Shown: one piece after another, positions 28,318 to 34,598 of the stretch
How the letters are laid out: each line of letters opens with the position of its first letter
Position numbering within the stretch: the stretch's first letter is position 1
NCBI GenBank assembly: GCA_965223415.1
Contig: OZ245002.1
Coordinates: forward strand, 4,256,001-4,320,000
Origin: Myxococcota bacterium
Lineage (GTDB): Bacteria > Myxococcota_A > UBA9160 > UBA6930
Direction: 5' to 3'
Length of the DNA stretch: 64,000 bases
Program-made: the position numbers and the translations under genes
Notes under the pieces: generated by a model
The model's input: only the letters and a program-made list of their open reading frames with translations
The model's database searches: none
Told to the model about the DNA's origin: nothing

Positions 28318-28956
28318 CTAGGCGAGCTCCAGCAGGTTCCGGGCCAGGTCGACGCCGTCCTTCGCCTGGGCGCCCCAGCCGTCCGCGCCTTGGTCGTCGG
28401 CCCACTGCTGGGTCGTCACGCCTCCGCCGACGATCACCGGGTACTTGTCCCGGACCTTCATCTCCTGGAGCAGGTCGAGCAGCTCCGCGAACTTCTCGAG
28501 GGCCGGGGCGAAGACCACCGACACCGCGATCATGTCCGCGCCGCTCTTCTCCGCCGTCTCGTAGAAATCCCAGGGCGTGTTCTTCTCGCCCATGTCGATC
28601 ACGTCGAAGCCGCCGATCGAGAGCAGGGTTCCCACCAGGTTCTTGCCGATGTTGTGCTGGCTGAGGAGCGTGCCCAGCACGATCTTCCGATTGTTCTTCG
28701 GCGTCTCGCCCCGGGGAAGCGCCGCCTCGATCAACGGGATGCAGGTCTTGGCGGTCACGCCCGCGCGCACCAGGTCGAGCACGATGGCCTTGCGGGCGGC
28801 GAAGCGATCGCCCACGTCGCTCAGGCCCTGCATCACGCCTTCTTCGAGCAGCTGCATGGGGTCGAGGCCAGCGGCCAGGAGCTCGCGGGTCATCTCCGCG
28901 GCCGGCTCCGGCTGGGTCTCGCTCACCTTCCGTCGCAGGTCTCCGATCGTCGCCAT
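28318..28956 (-). CDS. Corrinoid (B12-binding) protein, MtmC/MtbC-like
   Basis: N-terminal cap (GLDPMQLLEEGVMQGLSDVGDRF), KIVLGT, HNIGKNLV, FDVIDMG, VIVGGGVTTQQWA and GADGWG. Confidence 0.88.
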   Translation of the reverse strand: MATIGDLRRKVSETQPEPAAEMTRELLAAGLDPMQLLEEGVMQGLSDVGDRFAARKAIVLDLVRAGVTAKTCIPLIEAALPRGETPKNNRKIVLGTLLSQHNIGKNLVGTLLSIGGFDVIDMGEKNTPWDFYETAEKSGADMIAVSVVFAPALEKFAELLDLLQEMKVRDKYPVIVGGGVTTQQWADDQGADGWGAQAKDGVDLARNLLELA

Positions 28957-28966
28957 TCATCCTCTC

Positions 28967-30325
28967 CTAGGCGTCGGTCCAGGTGGGGTAGTCCAGTCCG
29001 AGCTCCCGGAAGATCCGGGTGAACTTCCGGTACTGCAGGACGAGCTCCTCGCGGGGGCGGAGGGTCGTCAGGTCGTAGAGCTTGTCGAGCCCGACCGGGG
29101 GCGGAGTGGGCTCGCGCTCCGCCGCATTGATCTTTCGGATGATCTCCACGCCCTCTTGCGGAGTGAGGGTCGCGGCGGCCCGGGCGATCTCTCCCGCCCA
29201 GCGGCACTCGAGGCCCGTCGAGCCCCCTGCCAGCCACAGAGCCTCCATCCCGGAGATGCAGGCATTGATGCAGTGGGTGGCCGTGTCGTACCAGGCGTCG
29301 TCCGAGAAGGCGGCGCCGGGCTGGCCCGTACTGCCGAAGGAAACCCAGGGGAGCTTCAGGTTCCGCTCCGCCGCGAGCGCCGCCGCCGAGTTGCACCAGG
29401 TGATGTCGGCCCCGACGTAGCTGCCGTGGATCGACATCGACATGGCCTGGGTGAGTGCGCCGCCCGAGTAGCAGAGCATGCCCAGGGTGTGGGCGATGAT
29501 CTCGATGGCCGCCTGCTCCGGCCCGGTCACGTAGCCGTACATCGCCGGGGAGCTGCTCATCCATGGCTCGATGCCGTGTTGGTCGCCGAAGAAGGCCAGG
29601 TTGAAGCGGTCGTAGTTGATCCGCATGTCCTGGAGGGTCTGCACCGGCAGCGTGCAGTTCCGAGCGTTGTACATGCCGGGACCGAAGGTGCTCATCATCG
29701 CGAGCGGCGTCGTGGCGCTCATCGGGATGCCGAAGAAGAGGCCCGGCTTGCCTGCCCAGGCCGCCGCCTCGTTCATCGCGCGGGCCTCGGTCTGGCACAC
29801 GACGGTCTGGGCCGGCGTGTCGAGGATGTTCTTCAGCTCGCCCACGCCGAGCAACGGGATCGGGATCACGCCGTCGCAGGTCGGCTCCTGCATCGACGTC
29901 ATGGCGTAGAGCTTGTAGCGGTCGACGTTCTTGGTGAGCGCGCCCGCCGGGAACCAGGTGAAGGGATGCCGGGCGTCGCCCGGCGCCCGGGGCGAGAGGG
30001 TGATGGCCTCGCGCCCGGATCCCAGGGTGATCTCGTGGCGGGCGGCGGCGATGGCCTCGAGGACCTCCTCCTCGGTGAACTTGACGATCCGCCGGGTGTC
30101 CTTGCAGTAGAGGCCCACCTCGAGCAGCAGGTCGAGGCCCGCGCGGAAGATCGCGTCCGCCAGGTCGGGGTCGATCATCACCGGGTCTTCGCCGTTCCAT
30201 TCGATCCGGTGCCGGGCCTGCACCTCGGCCATGACGGTGGGGAAGAGCTCGGTCTCGAACTTCTCTTCGATCATGATCGGCCCGGTGCCCGAGCGCTCGA
30301 CCGCCTGCCAGAGGAGCTTGCCCAT
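28967..30325 (-). CDS. mtmB: Monomethylamine:corrinoid methyltransferase (MtmB) family protein lacking pyrrolysine
   Basis: GLYCKDTRRIVKFTEEEV (compare MtmB GIYCTDTHRIVKYTEDEI), AGKPGL, GPEQAAI, TGLECRWAGE and LYDLTTLRP; 452 aa with no in-frame amber codon. Confidence 0.8.
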   Translation of the reverse strand: MGKLLWQAVERSGTGPIMIEEKFETELFPTVMAEVQARHRIEWNGEDPVMIDPDLADAIFRAGLDLLLEVGLYCKDTRRIVKFTEEEVLEAIAAARHEITLGSGREAITLSPRAPGDARHPFTWFPAGALTKNVDRYKLYAMTSMQEPTCDGVIPIPLLGVGELKNILDTPAQTVVCQTEARAMNEAAAWAGKPGLFFGIPMSATTPLAMMSTFGPGMYNARNCTLPVQTLQDMRINYDRFNLAFFGDQHGIEPWMSSSPAMYGYVTGPEQAAIEIIAHTLGMLCYSGGALTQAMSMSIHGSYVGADITWCNSAAALAAERNLKLPWVSFGSTGQPGAAFSDDAWYDTATHCINACISGMEALWLAGGSTGLECRWAGEIARAAATLTPQEGVEIIRKINAAEREPTPPPVGLDKLYDLTTLRPREELVLQYRKFTRIFRELGLDYPTWTDA

Positions 30326-30336
30326 GGAGGTCTCCT

Positions 30337-31518
30337 TCAGCCCTGCAGGTAGCACTCGCCCTCGCGCATGCAGCGCATGAGGGCGGCGCATTCCTGGCCG
30401 ACGTAGCGGATGTGCTGGGGCAGCAGCCACGGCATCACGTCCACGATGTACCAGGAGAGATCCTCGGGGTCGCTGAAGGCGTCCTCCCACTGGATGTCGC
30501 TGGCATCGTGGTTGAGCAGCATCGCCCGGGCCTTGCCGCCGTCGTTGCCGAACAGGAAGACGCCGGAGGGATCGACGTGGAGGGGCAGGGGGCGCTTGAA
30601 CCAGTCTCCCAGCACACGCCAGGAGCGCGCGAAGTCCCGGGCCGGGAGCACGACCCGTTGGAGGAGGAAGGTGGCCGTACCCGCTTCGACCCCGAGACGC
30701 CGGGCCTCCTCCCGGTGTCGGCGCACGAGGGCCGTCGCTTCGAGGGGCCAGTCCGTGTAGACGTCGCAGCGCTGCAGCACGTAGGAGGCGAAGAGCTTGT
30801 CCTCGACGATCTCGAAGTCTGCCGACGCGAGGTTCGCGTCCCGCGCACCGGGGAGGAAGCACCGTTCGAAATCGTCGCGGGTGAAGTCCAGGAAGGCAGG
30901 GAACTCGTCCCTCGCCTCCTTCTCGCCATTCTCGAGGACCGGTGTCTCGACGGTCACCAGGGCGTTCAGCGCCACGGCGGCGCGCTCGCCGGGGGCGCTC
31001 TCCCGCTCGCTGCCGATCCGGAGCGCGAGGTTCAGGAGCTGGAGCCAGCCGTCGGCGACGCTGCTGGTGAAGATCGGGAAGCTCGTCTTGCGCGAGAGGA
31101 AGACCTTCCGCTCGGGGATTTCGGGCGCGGTCAGGCGGAGGCCCGTGCGCTCTCCGGACCGGAAGGGCAGGTCGCGGATCGACGCGGCCAGGTCGCCTTG
31201 AGGCTTCTCGCGCAGGTCCGATATCTGGACGTCCGACCGCAGGGCATCGACGGGGGTGGCGCCGAGCTCCGGCGAGAGCCGCCCACGAGGGCCCGCCAGC
31301 CGGCCGTCCTCGTCGAGGCCCTGCTTCCAGAGGACGACCAGGGCGTCGCCGGTGGCCTTCCGGTCGTCGCCCGCGAGCACCAGGTGGCGGACGTCCGGGT
31401 GCGCTGCCAGCTCTCGCAGCAGCTGCTCCAGCTCGGAGCGGGAGCCGAGCGGCGCCGAGAACGCGATGCGCTCTCCTTCGAGATGGGTGCCACAGACGAC
31501 GACGTCACGAGTGGGCAT
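30337..31518 (-). CDS. Fusion of MtrA-like, degenerate thymidylate synthase-like and DUF4346-like domains
   Basis: LAAHPDVRHLVLAGDD..TGDALVVLWKQGLDEDG (MtrA-like); SVADGWLQLL and LFASYVLQRCDVYTDWP (TS-like); DPSGVFL and HIRYVGQE (DUF4346-like). Confidence 0.6.
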   Translation of the reverse strand: MPTRDVVVCGTHLEGERIAFSAPLGSRSELEQLLRELAAHPDVRHLVLAGDDRKATGDALVVLWKQGLDEDGRLAGPRGRLSPELGATPVDALRSDVQISDLREKPQGDLAASIRDLPFRSGERTGLRLTAPEIPERKVFLSRKTSFPIFTSSVADGWLQLLNLALRIGSERESAPGERAAVALNALVTVETPVLENGEKEARDEFPAFLDFTRDDFERCFLPGARDANLASADFEIVEDKLFASYVLQRCDVYTDWPLEATALVRRHREEARRLGVEAGTATFLLQRVVLPARDFARSWRVLGDWFKRPLPLHVDPSGVFLFGNDGGKARAMLLNHDASDIQWEDAFSDPEDLSWYIVDVMPWLLPQHIRYVGQECAALMRCMREGECYLQG

Positions 31519-32179
31519 GACGATCCTCCTGGCCTCTGCGGGTGCAGAAGGCACGGATGAACTGGTCTTCCAGCCGTTCGAGCACGGCTTCGTGGGCCGC
31601 CTCCAGGCCCTGCTCGACCCAGTGGGTCAGCTCCACCTGCTTGAGGGCGAGCATCTTGCGGACCAGCAGGTCCGGGTCGTCCGGGACGTAGAGGCCCTCT
31701 GCGATGCCGCGTTCGAACAGCGCGCGCGGGATCGCGGCGCCCTCGTCCCAGATCGGCGACTCCCCGGCCGCGTTGGCGAGCCTCGACGCCCAGCCGTAGC
31801 CGTCGCGGCTGCACATTCGCAGGAAGTCCGGGCGCTCGAGGAAGTAGCGGGCGCCTTCCCGCAGCACCGCCAGGTGGGCGGGGAGGGTGTCCGCGTGCGC
31901 GTCGTGGGCGGCTCGTATGCAGGCGAGGAATTCGCGCATCCGCACCCGGTGGATCTCGCGGAAGAGCGAGTCCTTTCCGTCGATGACGCCGTAGAGGGTC
32001 CCGAGGGACACGCCGGCCTCGGCCGCGATGTCCCGCATGCGGGAGCCGTCGGCACCCTTGGCGCCGAACACGCGCTCGGCGGCGGCGGCGACCGCCTCGC
32101 GGTAGACCGATGCGCGCTCCTCGCGCATGCGCTGCTGGATCGGTGCGCTGCGGGTCTTCGCGGGGGCTCTCCGGGCCAT
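31505..32179 (-). CDS. TetR/AcrR family transcriptional regulator
   Basis: AAERVFGAKG...RMRDIAAEAGVSLGTLY...KDSL. Confidence 0.9.
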   Translation of the reverse strand: MARRAPAKTRSAPIQQRMREERASVYREAVAAAAERVFGAKGADGSRMRDIAAEAGVSLGTLYGVIDGKDSLFREIHRVRMREFLACIRAAHDAHADTLPAHLAVLREGARYFLERPDFLRMCSRDGYGWASRLANAAGESPIWDEGAAIPRALFERGIAEGLYVPDDPDLLVRKMLALKQVELTHWVEQGLEAAHEAVLERLEDQFIRAFCTRRGQEDRHAHS

Positions 32180-32187
32180 GAATCCGG

Positions 32188-32216
32188 ATTCTATTACATT
32201 AGAACCAGAATTTCAA
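32188..32216 (-). promoter_or_regulatory. Sigma70-type promoter of the tetR operon, overlapping an imperfect inverted repeat (probable operator)
   Basis: The minus strand reads TTGAAA-N17-TAGAAT-N8-ATG, with a TTCTA-N6-TAGAA dyad in an AT-rich patch. Confidence 0.75.
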
Positions 32217-32830
32217 TCGGCGACGGCGAACACCAGGAAGCTCTGCCGATCCAGGAAGGTGTGGTCGGCGTCGAGGCGGTAGCCCGCCTCGACGAGGGCG
32301 GAGACGATGGCGTCCTTGTCCGTGGCGTGGTTGCCGAGCAGCGACCAGCCGTCCCGGGGCGCGTACTCCACCACGGCGATCCGGGCTCCCGGCCGGAGGT
32401 GCGGCTTCAGGTTCGCGAAGTAGGCCGCCTGGTCCGGCAAGTGGTGGAAGGTGTTGCAGGTGAAGATCCAGTCGACGGGCTCCGGGAGCTTCGCGTCGTC
32501 CGGCGCGGCGAGGACTGCGCTCACGTTGGCAACGCCGTCCTCCTCGGCCTTGCCGGCGATGTAATCCGTCATGTCCGCGTCGATGTCCACCGCGTAGACG
32601 CGCCCCTCCGGCACCGCCGCGGCGAGGCGGAAGGTGAAGTAGCCGCCGCCCGCACCGAGATCCGCGATCAGGGCGTCCTCGGCGAAGCCGAGGCTCGCGA
32701 CCACCTGGGCCGGCTGCTGCCACTGGTCCCGGTCGCCCCCGGCGTACATGCGGCGCTTGAGCCAGCCGCAGCCGAGGCTTCCCGCGACCAGCGCGGTGAG
32801 CAGGGCGAGAGCGATCGCCCGTCGGGTCAT
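32213..32830 (-). CDS. Class I SAM-dependent methyltransferase, exported or lipoprotein
   Basis: RDQWQQP, IADLGAGGGYFT, VYAVDID and LRPGAR; LGC lipobox-like motif. Confidence 0.88.
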   Translation of the reverse strand: MTRRAIALALLTALVAGSLGCGWLKRRMYAGGDRDQWQQPAQVVASLGFAEDALIADLGAGGGYFTFRLAAAVPEGRVYAVDIDADMTDYIAGKAEEDGVANVSAVLAAPDDAKLPEPVDWIFTCNTFHHLPDQAAYFANLKPHLRPGARIAVVEYAPRDGWSLLGNHATDKDAIVSALVEAGYRLDADHTFLDRQSFLVFAVAD

Positions 32831-32840
32831 GTCCGTTCTC

Positions 32841-34025
32841 CTAGGCCGGGCGCAGGGTGTTCAGCTCGCGCGCGTTGTCGCGCAGGATCCTCTGGAGCGA
32901 GGCGGCATCGAAGCCCTCCAGCTCCTCCAGGTAGTCGAGAGGCTGGGGCATGCCCTCGATGTGGGGCCAGTCCGAGCCGAAGATCACGCGCTCGGGGCCC
33001 ATGATCTCCACGACCTCGTTCACGTCGTCTTCCCAGAACGGGTTGATCCAGACGTGCTCCTTGAAGAGCGCGCCCGGGTCCTCCTGGTAGTAGCCCGGGA
33101 TCTTGTCCGCGGACTGCTTCAGCTTGCGGAAGAGGTCCGGCAGGAACTCGGAGCCGTTCTCGACCGAGGCGATGCGCAGGTTCGGGAAGCGCTCGTACAT
33201 GCGGCCGTAGGACATGGTGATCAGCCAGTCGTAGGCGGCGCGCTCGATGTTGAAGGCCTTGATCGACGGGGTGTAGCCGCCGCCGTCGAAGCTCGCGCCG
33301 AAGCCGTCGCGGGTGTAGCCGTGGGTGGTGTAGCCGCTGTCGCCGGCGTGGACGACGGTGGTGATGCCCGCTTCGTTCACCCGCGCCCAGAAGGGATCGA
33401 AGCGCTCGTCGGCTGGGGAGAAGGTGCCATCGCGGGTCCAGACCGCCGCCGGCCGCATGGCGATGATCCGGGCGCCCCGGTCGAGGGCCCACTCCAGCTC
33501 GGAGACCGCGAAGTCCGTGTCGCAGAGGCTGATGTAGGGCGCGGCGAAGATGCGGTCCTTGTAGTGGCAGCCCCAGTCCTCGTCGATCCACCGGTTGAAG
33601 GCCCGGAACACCCACTCCACCGCCTGGGGGTCCTCCTTCAGGAGCTCCTCGTAGAGCACGCCCAGGGTGGGGAAGAGCCACATCGCCTCCAGGTCCTGCT
33701 CGTCCATCATCTGGATCCGGGCGTCGGCGTCCCGGTAGCAGGCGGGGATGGGCTCCCGCTCGCGCAGGTAGTGGACCGGGTGCTTCTTCTCCGGGTTGCC
33801 GCGGAAGAACTGGTGGAGGGCGCCGGGCTTCGCGATCGGGTCGAAGGTGGGGTTGACCACCGCGTGGCTCACCTTGCCGCCGACCACGTGGTACTGGCGC
33901 CCGTCGATTTCCGCCCACTGCACCGTGCGGGGCCCCGTCTTGGGGTCGAGATGGCGGGTGAAGGCGTCGAGAGCTTCGTAGTAGTGGTTGTCGGCGTCGA
34001 AGACCGGGTAGTCGACCGTGGGCAC
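32841..34025 (-). CDS. Amidohydrolase family 2 protein
   Basis: FDADNHYYE, LFPTLG, AFNRWIDEDW and IFGSDWPHIEG; GTG start with GAAGGAG RBS. Confidence 0.9.
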   Translation of the reverse strand: MPTVDYPVFDADNHYYEALDAFTRHLDPKTGPRTVQWAEIDGRQYHVVGGKVSHAVVNPTFDPIAKPGALHQFFRGNPEKKHPVHYLREREPIPACYRDADARIQMMDEQDLEAMWLFPTLGVLYEELLKEDPQAVEWVFRAFNRWIDEDWGCHYKDRIFAAPYISLCDTDFAVSELEWALDRGARIIAMRPAAVWTRDGTFSPADERFDPFWARVNEAGITTVVHAGDSGYTTHGYTRDGFGASFDGGGYTPSIKAFNIERAAYDWLITMSYGRMYERFPNLRIASVENGSEFLPDLFRKLKQSADKIPGYYQEDPGALFKEHVWINPFWEDDVNEVVEIMGPERVIFGSDWPHIEGMPQPLDYLEELEGFDAASLQRILRDNARELNTLRPA

Positions 34026-34064
34026 GGGGGGCTCTCCTTCGGGAGGCGAGGTTACCCTGGGGCC

Positions 34065-34598
34065 GTGCCTCGTGCCGACTGGAAGGTGTCCGCGCTGTGG
34101 AACGGCGCGCCCGCGGACCCGGAGGAGCACGCCGAGCTGCGGCTCGAGTGGGACGCCGAGGAGGCGGTGCTTCAGGTCGAGGCGCCCCTCCACGGCGACC
34201 CGGCACCGCCCGGCCCGCCGGGTCCGATGCCCGGCCTGTGGGAGTACGAGGTGGTAGAGCTGTTCCTGCTGGGGGAGGGTGAGCGCTACCTCGAGATCGA
34301 GGTCGGCCCCCACGGCCATCACTGGGTGCTGGAGCTGGAGGGCGCCCGGCAGGCCGTGCGGGAGGGCCTGCCCCTGCGCCTCGACGCCCGCATCGACGGT
34401 CCCCGCTGGCGAGCCGAGGCCCGCTTCCCCGCCGCCTGGCTCCCCCCCGGCCTCCACGCCGCCGCCGCCTACGCCATCCACGGCCGGGGCCGCGCCCGCC
34501 GCTACCTCTCCGCCTTCCCCCTCCCGGGCCGCGAGCCCGACTTCCACCAGCTCGCCGCCTTCCGCCCTCTCCGAATGAAGAAACGGGGCCAGAGTTAA
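34065..34598 (+). CDS. Hypothetical protein resembling UPF0462/C4orf33
   Basis: APLHGDPAPP, LWEYEVVELF, YLEIEVGPHGHH, YAIHG and PDFH. Confidence 0.7.
   Translation: MPRADWKVSALWNGAPADPEEHAELRLEWDAEEAVLQVEAPLHGDPAPPGPPGPMPGLWEYEVVELFLLGEGERYLEIEVGPHGHHWVLELEGARQAVREGLPLRLDARIDGPRWRAEARFPAAWLPPGLHAAAAYAIHGRGRARRYLSAFPLPGREPDFHQLAAFRPLRMKKRGQS

Follow-up and report, generated by a model that had tools for sequence, protein, structure and literature searches.

A pyrrolysine-free MtmB-like protein encoded with a corrinoid protein and a thymidylate synthase-fold partner in an operon of a Myxococcota bacterium

RESULTS

Organization of the operon

We analyzed a stretch of 64,000 nucleotides (the window) from the genome of a Myxococcota bacterium (GenBank assembly GCA_965223415.1, contig OZ245002.1, positions 4,256,001 to 4,320,000), in which the GC content ranged from 0.65 to 0.76. 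An initial annotation had described the open reading frame at 28967-30325 as an uninterrupted homologue of the monomethylamine methyltransferase MtmB, with ordinary residues at the pyrrolysine (Pyl) site and a corrinoid protein encoded nearby. The gene (protein P0001) belongs to a four-gene operon on the minus strand, in the order TetR-family regulator, three-domain protein (the partner), P0001 and corrinoid protein (P0002), with the following features:

28318-28956, minus strand: P0002, cognate corrinoid protein of 212 amino acids with a B12-binding cap and a Rossmann domain (Pfam B12-binding and B12-binding_2)
28642-28662, minus strand: lower-ligand motif S-Q-H-N-I-G of P0002 (in place of D-x-H-x-x-G)
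28967-30325, minus strand: P0001, Pyl-free MtmB-fold methyltransferase of 452 amino acids, predicted substrate:corrinoid methyltransferase (MT1) (Pfam, PDB and model matches)
29729-29731, minus strand: codon of Gly199 (GGN), counterpart of pyrrolysine-202 in MtmB (alignment; invariant in 47/47)
30337-31518, minus strand: partner (P0123/P0003), 393 amino acids from the ATG at 31518, candidate folate-side methyltransferase (domain and fold matches)
31505-32179, minus strand: TetR-family regulator, first gene of the operon (Pfam TetR_N, E = 2.6e-10)
32188-32216, minus strand: sigma-70-like promoter TTGAAA-17-TAGAAT directly upstream of the TetR gene (10/12 matches)

Each gene is preceded by a ribosome-binding site, the gaps are 10-11 nucleotides, and the stop codon of the TetR gene overlaps the next start, the ATG at 31518. 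The sites are AGGAGA for P0001, 5 nucleotides before the ATG at 30325, GGAGG for the partner and GAGAGG for P0002, the latter two likewise before an ATG. The program that listed open reading frames extends the P0001 frame to 30862; we placed the start at 30325 because a ribosome-binding site is found there, the longer frame overlaps the upstream gene, and the orthologues of P0001 all begin with MGKLLW.

The P0001 frame contains zero internal stops. The protein matched the Pfam family MtmB (PF05369) with E = 3.9e-44 (151.6 bits against a cut-off of 25; residues 6-444 aligned to positions 4-450 of the 450 in the profile), and the structures 1L2Q and 1NTH of Methanosarcina barkeri MtmB with E = 6e-33 (phmmer), and a search with NCBIfam models returned 0 families and no equivalog match. 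An AlphaFold2 model built on 47 relatives (predicted local distance difference test, pLDDT, 91.8) superposed on 1L2Q/1NTH with a template modeling (TM) score of 0.88 at 22% identity, and the next-ranked folds, MttB and MtgB, reached about 0.55. P0001 is a full-length member of the MtmB family with the MtmB TIM-barrel fold, and the description of an intact MtmB homologue adjoining a corrinoid protein gene proved correct.

The pyrrolysine position and the surrounding residues

The stretch AGKPGLFFGIPMSATT of P0001, which had been matched by eye to the Pyl region of MtmB, is located at 29708-29755 (minus strand), and the motif around the site reads AGKPGLFF-G-IPMSATT. In the phmmer alignment with Methanosarcina MtmB (22% identity), the X of 1L2Q (pyrrolysine 202) pairs with Gly199 of P0001, so that an ordinary residue does occupy the Pyl site; at this position P0001 has no in-frame UAG and a Gly codon instead. 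Gly199 is invariant in 47/47 aligned members of the P0001 clade, as are G192, P194, G195, P201 and M202. In a MAFFT alignment, two library proteins of 201 and 202 amino acids, ending in ...AGRPGMAV and ...AGRPGMGF, respectively, stop just one position short of Gly199; judged by these endings, they come from Pyl-MtmB genes cut at their UAG.

We take Glu205, Glu229 and Glu259 of MtmB to be the acidic residues around the Pyl ring (a literature search for Glu259 found nothing). In the phmmer alignment, which at 22% identity is moderately reliable, they pair with Met202, Pro227 and Ser257 of P0001, and these three residues are invariant or nearly so across the clade. The pocket was judged from alignments and from the DSSP strand ends of the P0001 model only; clade-invariant Trp, Met and Gln residues lie at the C-terminal ends of the barrel strands, and the clade conserves C150, C224, C311, C356, M202, M295, W255, W327 and W364. 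Because these acidic positions are occupied by Met, Pro and Ser, and because no characterized relative is close, a substrate other than monomethylamine appears to be the likeliest reading for the clade.

Pyrrolysine-free MtmB proteins and the position of the P0001 clade

A search of 1.84 billion cluster representatives yielded 606 representative clusters of the MtmB family at E <= 1e-3, and 129 of the best 150 of these 606 50%-cluster representatives were uninterrupted and at least 420 amino acids long. The Pyl column in an alignment of 135 full-length sequences contained G (28), L (18), I (14) and V (14), plus 15 other residues. Pyl-free MtmB proteins are therefore common and not unusual, and they form a large family that is already known. 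Their existence has long been recognized (PMC13044021, published in 2026), and the same paper reports the first function for such a protein, MtqB of Methanococcoides methylutens Q3c, which demethylates tetramethylammonium and choline and retains a slight monomethylamine activity. Growth of 'Ca. Formimonas warabiya' on dichloromethane has been reported to induce another Pyl-free MtmB protein more strongly than any other protein (PMC9768040).

The statement of the initial annotation that non-Pyl MtmB proteins have no established substrate is thus outdated (PMC13044021). Since Pyl-free members are common, one has a demonstrated function and another is linked to dichloromethane, the loss of Pyl alone is no proof of a new specificity. 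The suggestion of a new specificity for P0001 consequently stands in part: a substrate other than monomethylamine remains the likeliest in view of the replaced Glu positions and the lack of a close characterized relative, and the argument from the missing Pyl was insufficient.

Close relatives of P0001 (the best 120 of 169) share 57-87% identity with it and come from uncultured bacteria labeled Myxococcota, Deltaproteobacteria, Halieaceae and Ca. Binatia. Beyond the clade, P0244 (43% identity) and P0246 (38%) are the 50%-cluster representatives most similar to P0001, and the others reach at most 34%. In a FastTree phylogeny of 137 sequences, from which fragments shorter than 420 amino acids were left out except for two Pyl markers, the P0001 clade grouped with P0244 and P0246 (support 0.998) and fell within a group of 26 members (support 0.998), apart from 106 sequences that include the Pyl-MtmB fragments. 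No methanogen-named protein was found in relative searches from P0001 (best 120 of 169) and from its 43% sister P0244. The clade appears distant from every characterized member (22% identity to MtmB). Automatic annotation names such genes 'monomethylamine:corrinoid methyltransferase', and this label is almost certainly wrong for the clade. As far as literature searches reach, the P0001 clade and its operon are undescribed in print, although a Pyl-free MtmB protein as such is ordinary.

Two observations were made on other branches of the family. The 3.05-Mb contig carrying P0244 encodes at least five paralogues of its subclade (P0244, P0398, P0399, P0401 and P0424), which are 67-82% mutually identical. 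Four metagenome contigs (L094, L096, L098 and L099) contain 3-5 tandem MtmB-like paralogues (22-26% identity to P0001) behind 1-2 corrinoid protein genes.

The corrinoid protein and the three-domain partner

P0002 matched Pfam B12-binding (E = 7.4e-16) and B12-binding_2 (E = 1.3e-7), and all NCBIfam corrinoid-protein models stayed under their cut-offs. The protein keeps the lower-ligand His101 within the motif SQHNIG, which is found in 14/14 orthologues, all of which have Ser where the His-Asp-Ser relay has its Asp; the canonical D-x-H-x-x-G is present in 3/3 corrinoid proteins encoded beside distant MtmB paralogues. This replacement might alter the His-on/His-off control or the redox behavior of the cobalamin, which would matter because the host genome lacks RamA (see below).

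The partner consists of an MtrA-like cobalamin-domain fold (residues 1-125), a thymidylate synthase (TS) fold (approximately 142-305) and a DUF4346 region (approximately 316-392), and the middle part is shortened in the copy in the window. Against Pfam, it matched DUF4346 (E = 2.6e-9) and, under the cut-off of that family, MtrA (1.2e-4); among 35 members of the partner family, DUF4346 was detected in 35/35, Thymidylat_synt in 22/35 and MtrA in 20/35. The model of the partner (pLDDT 82) was compared with known structures. With VIA-align, residues 1-125 matched chain 5LAA_B, MtrA with cobalamin, with Z = 15.0 (124 aligned residues; root-mean-square deviation 2.2), followed by Rossmann-type matches with Z < 7; sequence similarity between this domain and MtrA is weak (E = 2.4e-5). 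In the alignment to MtrA 9QTQ, His84/85 sits in a two-residue insertion that is missing from the partner; we take this His84 to be the cobalt-ligating residue of MtrA.

Residues 142-305 matched enzymes of the ThyA fold (Z 11-15; 9IQC, Z 15.3). Foldseek returned 366 matches at E <= 1e-3 for the model, and among the matches listed all have the TS fold except that at rank 11, a de novo designed serine hydrolase. An hhalign comparison with ThyA of E. coli K-12 (thyA), which served as the reference, gave a probability of 94.9%. In ThyA numbering, the column of the catalytic Cys146 is variable in the partner family (Asn in the window), the column of Arg166, the residue that binds the phosphate of deoxyuridine monophosphate, holds R, Q, E, G, P or C, and the Asn177 column is not conserved either. 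The equivalent of Asp169, the side chain that we assume to hydrogen-bond the folate pterin, is D252 and is invariant in 35/35 members.

DUF4346 is the best conserved part of the partner (window 30340-30570, minus strand), with long invariant runs; His337, His369 and Cys377 never vary, and Cys389 is nearly invariant. The start of the region overlaps the C-terminal strands of ThyA in the profile alignment, and DUF4346 may need a ligand, a metal or a partner in order to fold. A Pfam search detected no ATPase or iron-sulfur cluster motif in the protein. Complex prediction for P0002 and the partner gave scores of 0.23 and 0.30, where the mark is 0.32, and speaks neither for nor against an interaction. 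Literature searches returned nothing on DUF4346 by name, nor on MtrA, TS and corrinoid in combination. The mlp gene clusters (PMC10418091) are a different system; MtmB, MtrA and DUF4346 go without mention in that paper.

Association of the partner with the MtmB-like gene

We examined loci from species genomes, a sample of 401 genomes of the phylum and a survey of 192 genomes of the order to which the host belongs; the sets have genomes in common, and related genomes do not count as independent. At the species-genome loci, the partner adjoins the MtmB-like gene in 7/7 cases. Of the 401 genomes, 9 contained any MtmB-like gene, all belonging to the order of the host: seven with a P0001 orthologue (60-100% identity), which are exactly the seven with a partner homologue, and two with only paralogues of 28-29% identity, neither of which contains the partner. 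In the order survey, 15 genomes had the orthologue and 14 the partner, and in the remaining case the gene is a fragment at the end of a contig; the partner occurred in 0/4 genomes with only paralogues of 28-30% identity. One locus that had seemed to offer an independent lineage, L004 from a metagenome-assembled genome (MAG) labeled Gammaproteobacteria, falls in the host's own order, and therefore the order survey is not independent of the phylum sample.

We further compared 80 metagenome loci, of which we counted only those with flanks of 1.5 kb or more upstream and 2.5 kb or more downstream, according to the identity of the MtmB-like protein to P0001:

Identity of at least 65%: partner in 10/11 loci, gene order of the window
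Identity of 54-65%: partner in 7/8 loci, order MtmB-corrinoid protein-partner, often on the opposite strand
Identity of 45-54%: partner in 0/4 loci
Identity below 45%: partner in 0/3 loci

The linkage of the partner thus outlasts gene rearrangement and is good evidence of shared function.

A second MtmB-like copy (70% identity) was observed at L012 (G238:C28) and L040, where it stands alone beside short TetR-like remnants with no partner or corrinoid protein within reach; genome G238, which has the orphan copy at L012, carries a complete module elsewhere (L019).

Regulatory region and neighboring genes

The four-gene set occurs in the same order at 7/7 species-genome loci, with a TetR homologue at the same place in all of them and with variable flanks. 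One promoter-like site was found upstream of the TetR gene against 0.2 expected, and its TAGAAT box is overlapped by the palindrome TTCTA-N6-TAGAA. TAGAAT precedes the TetR gene in 6/6 loci compared (window, L002, L003, L005, L006 and L007), and the palindrome is exact in 3/6 (window, L003 and L005) and near-exact in L006. The palindrome is likely to be the TetR operator. The promoter/operator island (32170-32216, minus strand) is AT-rich within a genome of 70% GC and is conserved in front of the TetR gene at related loci.

The operon lies in the window beside Amidohydro_2, SnoaL, short-chain dehydrogenase/reductase (SDR) and luciferase-like genes. Two genes lie directly upstream:

32213-32830, minus strand: S-adenosylmethionine (SAM)-dependent methyltransferase with a lipoprotein-like signal (…LVAGSLGCG)
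32844-34100, minus strand: Amidohydro_2 protein

Neither is conserved beside the operon at the seven species-genome loci. In the rearranged subgroup of 58% identity, a FadH/old yellow enzyme (OYE)-type iron-sulfur flavoenzyme (640 amino acids; Oxidored_FMN and Pyr_redox_2) adjoins the MtmB-like gene at 3/6 loci:

L053:3735-5660: FadH/OYE-type flavoenzyme
L054:650-2572: FadH/OYE-type flavoenzyme
L056:3735-5660: FadH/OYE-type flavoenzyme

The flavoenzyme scores best with the models for BaiCD, bilirubin reductase and mycofactocin OYE, each time under the cut-off, and it therefore gives no pointer to amines.

The host genome

The host genome is a single contig of 5.83 Mb and is 97% complete. It encodes one MtmB-like gene and one DUF4346 gene, MetF and MetH, and three haem-copper oxidase subunit I genes. 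The best hit for PylS (TIGR02367) scored 23.4 bits, where the cut-off is 178 (the search covered neither pylT nor pylBCD); since oxidase genes are present and PylS stays below its cut-off, the host can respire oxygen and does not decode pyrrolysine. RamA/RACo (PF14574) gave 0 matches in the genome, with a positive control in M. acetivorans, and the genome has no member of MttB (PF06253) and no ThyA that we could find. As for a dedicated methyltransferase II of the MtrH/MetH type (PF00809), only two genome matches were obtained, which lie far from the operon in frames the size of FolP and MetH; the search did not extend to the UroD/MtaA type.

DISCUSSION

Proposed function of the operon

Our preferred, if tentative, explanation is that the operon encodes a demethylase which is inducible and acts on a methylated amine, though not on monomethylamine, the methyl group passing via cobalamin to tetrahydrofolate through the partner with its dead TS domain. 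TetR would bind the AT-rich palindrome that covers the -10 box until the substrate or product releases it, which would make the operon inducible. P0001 would then bind a methylated compound, most probably a quaternary or tertiary methylammonium of the choline, tetramethylammonium or betaine kind, and, by homology with MtmB and MtqB, methylate the Co(I) of the neighboring corrinoid protein. We argue that the substrate is not monomethylamine because the gene has no Pyl codon, PylS is not found over its cut-off, Gly199 is invariant, the Glu positions are replaced and MtqB provides a precedent; by analogy with MtqB, a quaternary or tertiary methylamine is the most likely substrate.

The partner, in turn, may demethylate the methyl-Co(III) protein, its dead TS domain and DUF4346 binding tetrahydrofolate in place of an MtrH/MetH-type methyltransferase II. 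We propose this folate-side role because the protein has a TS fold with an invariant D252 (Asp169), the genome encodes no PF00809 protein beyond FolP and MetH and no MttB, and MetF is present. The product, 5-methyltetrahydrofolate, could be oxidized by MetF or used by MetH. Because the genome is without RamA, reactivation of Co(II) would need another route. The operon offers a candidate folate-side methyltransferase of a new kind that can be put to the test. It is possible, if doubtful, that these parts amount to a self-contained, RamA-free corrinoid system in bacteria able to respire oxygen, in which a dead TS domain with DUF4346, often together with an MtrA-like domain, constitutes a new methylcobamide:tetrahydrofolate methyltransferase and the MtmB-like enzyme acts on a so far unrecognized substrate.

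Several observations weigh against this explanation. The pocket comparison rests on an alignment at 22% identity and on an assumed choice of the MtmB residues around Pyl, and the distance of MtqB to the P0001 clade is only bounded, via the names and identities of relatives. Two orthologue loci (L012/L040 and L058) have no partner nearby. No transporter or catabolic gene is common to the window flanks, the seven genome loci and six rearranged metagenome loci, so that the context does not indicate the substrate. No RNA run covering window 28318-32179 was found, the DNA being covered by four runs of one study. Within the partner model, the DUF4346 part is of low confidence (pLDDT 44-58), and this region alone gave 0 matches to PDB sequences at E <= 10. 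The MtrA-like domain is missing in 5/14 partner homologues of the order, and therefore the constant core of the partner is the TS fold with DUF4346. Moreover, DUF4346 occurs in the MtmB-free control genomes of Synechococcus elongatus, M. jannaschii and S. acidocaldarius, and the ESM Atlas lists MtrA+TS+DUF4346 proteins for cyanobacteria and others (scores 0.89, to be taken as leads only); the partner family therefore also has roles that are independent of MtmB.

Alternative explanations

The same pair of MT1 and corrinoid protein might use a methyl donor that is not an amine but a small neutral compound or one with the methyl group on sulfur or oxygen, such as methanethiol, dimethylsulfide, dimethylsulfoniopropionate (DMSP), a methoxylated aromatic or a methyl halide, which we consider unlikely. 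The Met, Pro and Ser at the presumed acidic positions and the several Cys, Met and Trp residues conserved in the clade would suit such a donor; however, an aromatic or Met-lined pocket suits a quaternary ammonium as well, and no Zn-type Cys/Glu site was shown. The Amidohydro_2, SnoaL, SDR and luciferase-like genes in the window also point in this direction, but these neighbors are not conserved at other loci. A TetR regulator suits a hydrophobic ligand, and an amine or betaine transporter is not conserved beside the operon. As to the family, proteomics ties one Pyl-free MtmB protein to dichloromethane (PMC9768040), whereas quaternary amines are the substrates of the only member for which any have been demonstrated (PMC13044021).

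A different possibility concerns the partner, which might be a corrinoid-handling helper that loads, protects or, in the stead of RamA, reductively reactivates the corrinoid protein, with the methyl group leaving via, for example, MetH, which the genome encodes. Some reactivation route is missing in a genome without RamA/RACo, the N-terminal domain has the cobalamin-binding fold of MtrA (Z 15.0), and His337, His369, Cys377 and Cys389 of DUF4346 could hold a metal. Nevertheless, the MtrA-like domain lacks the cobalt His and is absent in 5/14 homologues, neither an ATPase nor an iron-sulfur cluster motif was detected in the Pfam search, and the Asp169 equivalent is retained, which together leave this role a rather small chance.

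It is improbable that the methyl group flows in reverse, from methyltetrahydrofolate on the dead-TS protein through the corrinoid protein to P0001, which would then methylate an amine or another nucleophile. Corrinoid methyl transfers are reversible in principle, and the operon contains no catabolic follow-up gene or conserved importer, but the characterized members of the MtmB and MttB superfamily are all demethylases, TetR-controlled operons of such a kind are usually catabolic or efflux-related, oxygen-respiring bacteria normally use SAM for methylation, and the patchy distribution (15/192 genomes of the order) fits an accessory catabolic trait. Finally, that P0001 is an ordinary monomethylamine methyltransferase working without Pyl, as its automatic annotation name and the small residual monomethylamine activity of MtqB (PMC13044021) might suggest, is very improbable in view of the change of Pyl to Gly, the replaced acidic positions around it, the 22% identity to MtmB, the absence of PylS over its cut-off and the 0 NCBIfam equivalog matches.

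Comparison with known systems

P0001 resembles M. barkeri MtmB in its family, its whole-length TIM barrel, the AG(K/R)PG before the Pyl site and the adjacent cognate corrinoid gene; it differs in Gly199 for Pyl202, in Met, Pro and Ser for Glu205, Glu229 and Glu259, and in the low identity of 22%. Its host is a bacterium with oxidase genes and without PylS or RamA, and the operon contains no MtbA-type partner. MtqB/MtqC, like P0001/P0002, combine a Pyl-free MtmB homologue with its own corrinoid protein (PMC13044021), and MtqB is the best functional analogy because it is the only Pyl-free MtmB protein with an assayed substrate. Unlike P0001, it works in a methanogen in which RamA is present and the methyl group is transferred to coenzyme M through MtbA. 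The paper places MtqB near the Pyl-MtmB branch, whereas the P0001 clade falls in a separate group; the two are set apart here by the description in that paper.

The non-Pyl MttB systems, MtgB/MtgC/MtgA for glycine betaine, MtcB for carnitine and MtpB for proline betaine, share the logic of a loss of Pyl with a shift to quaternary amines, and they comprise three components with methyl transfer to tetrahydrofolate in bacteria, as proposed here for the P0001 operon. They belong, however, to PF06253, of which the host genome has no member, and their methyltransferase II is an MtrH/MetH-like pterin-binding TIM barrel that is missing from the P0001 operon.

The partner shares the fold of its middle part (approximately 142-305) and the Asp169 equivalent with ThyA and with the hydroxymethylases of the ThyA fold, MilA (5JNH) and the phage dCMP hydroxylase (9IQU/9IQC). 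It differs from ThyA in lacking conserved Cys146, Arg166 and Asn177, in being fused to an MtrA-like domain and DUF4346, and in being encoded beside a corrinoid methyltransferase pair. Its N-terminal domain shares the fold, with weak sequence similarity, of MtrA of the methyl-tetrahydromethanopterin:coenzyme M methyltransferase (5LAA, 9QTQ), but it lacks the cobalt-ligand His, is not part of the Mtr membrane complex and is absent in 5/14 homologues.

Implications

Surveys count genes labeled as monomethylamine methyltransferase as potential for methylamine use or methanogenesis. MAG surveys also invoke an 'undescribed protein' for bacteria and archaea that have MtxB/MtxC but no second methyltransferase (PMC11264602). 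If the dead TS domain with DUF4346 is a methyltransferase, it would give that 'undescribed protein' a name (PMC11264602) and DUF4346 a first function, and the folate-side half-reaction of corrinoid methyl transfer would be carried out by a protein of a new type. The P0001 clade would, if the proposal is true, be a second functional branch within the Pyl-free MtmB family. With four genes and a promoter and repressor of its own, the unit is compact and lends itself to direct expression and assay. Should the explanation hold, corrinoid chemistry, which is best known from strict anaerobes, would reach bacteria that have genes for oxygen respiration and no RamA.

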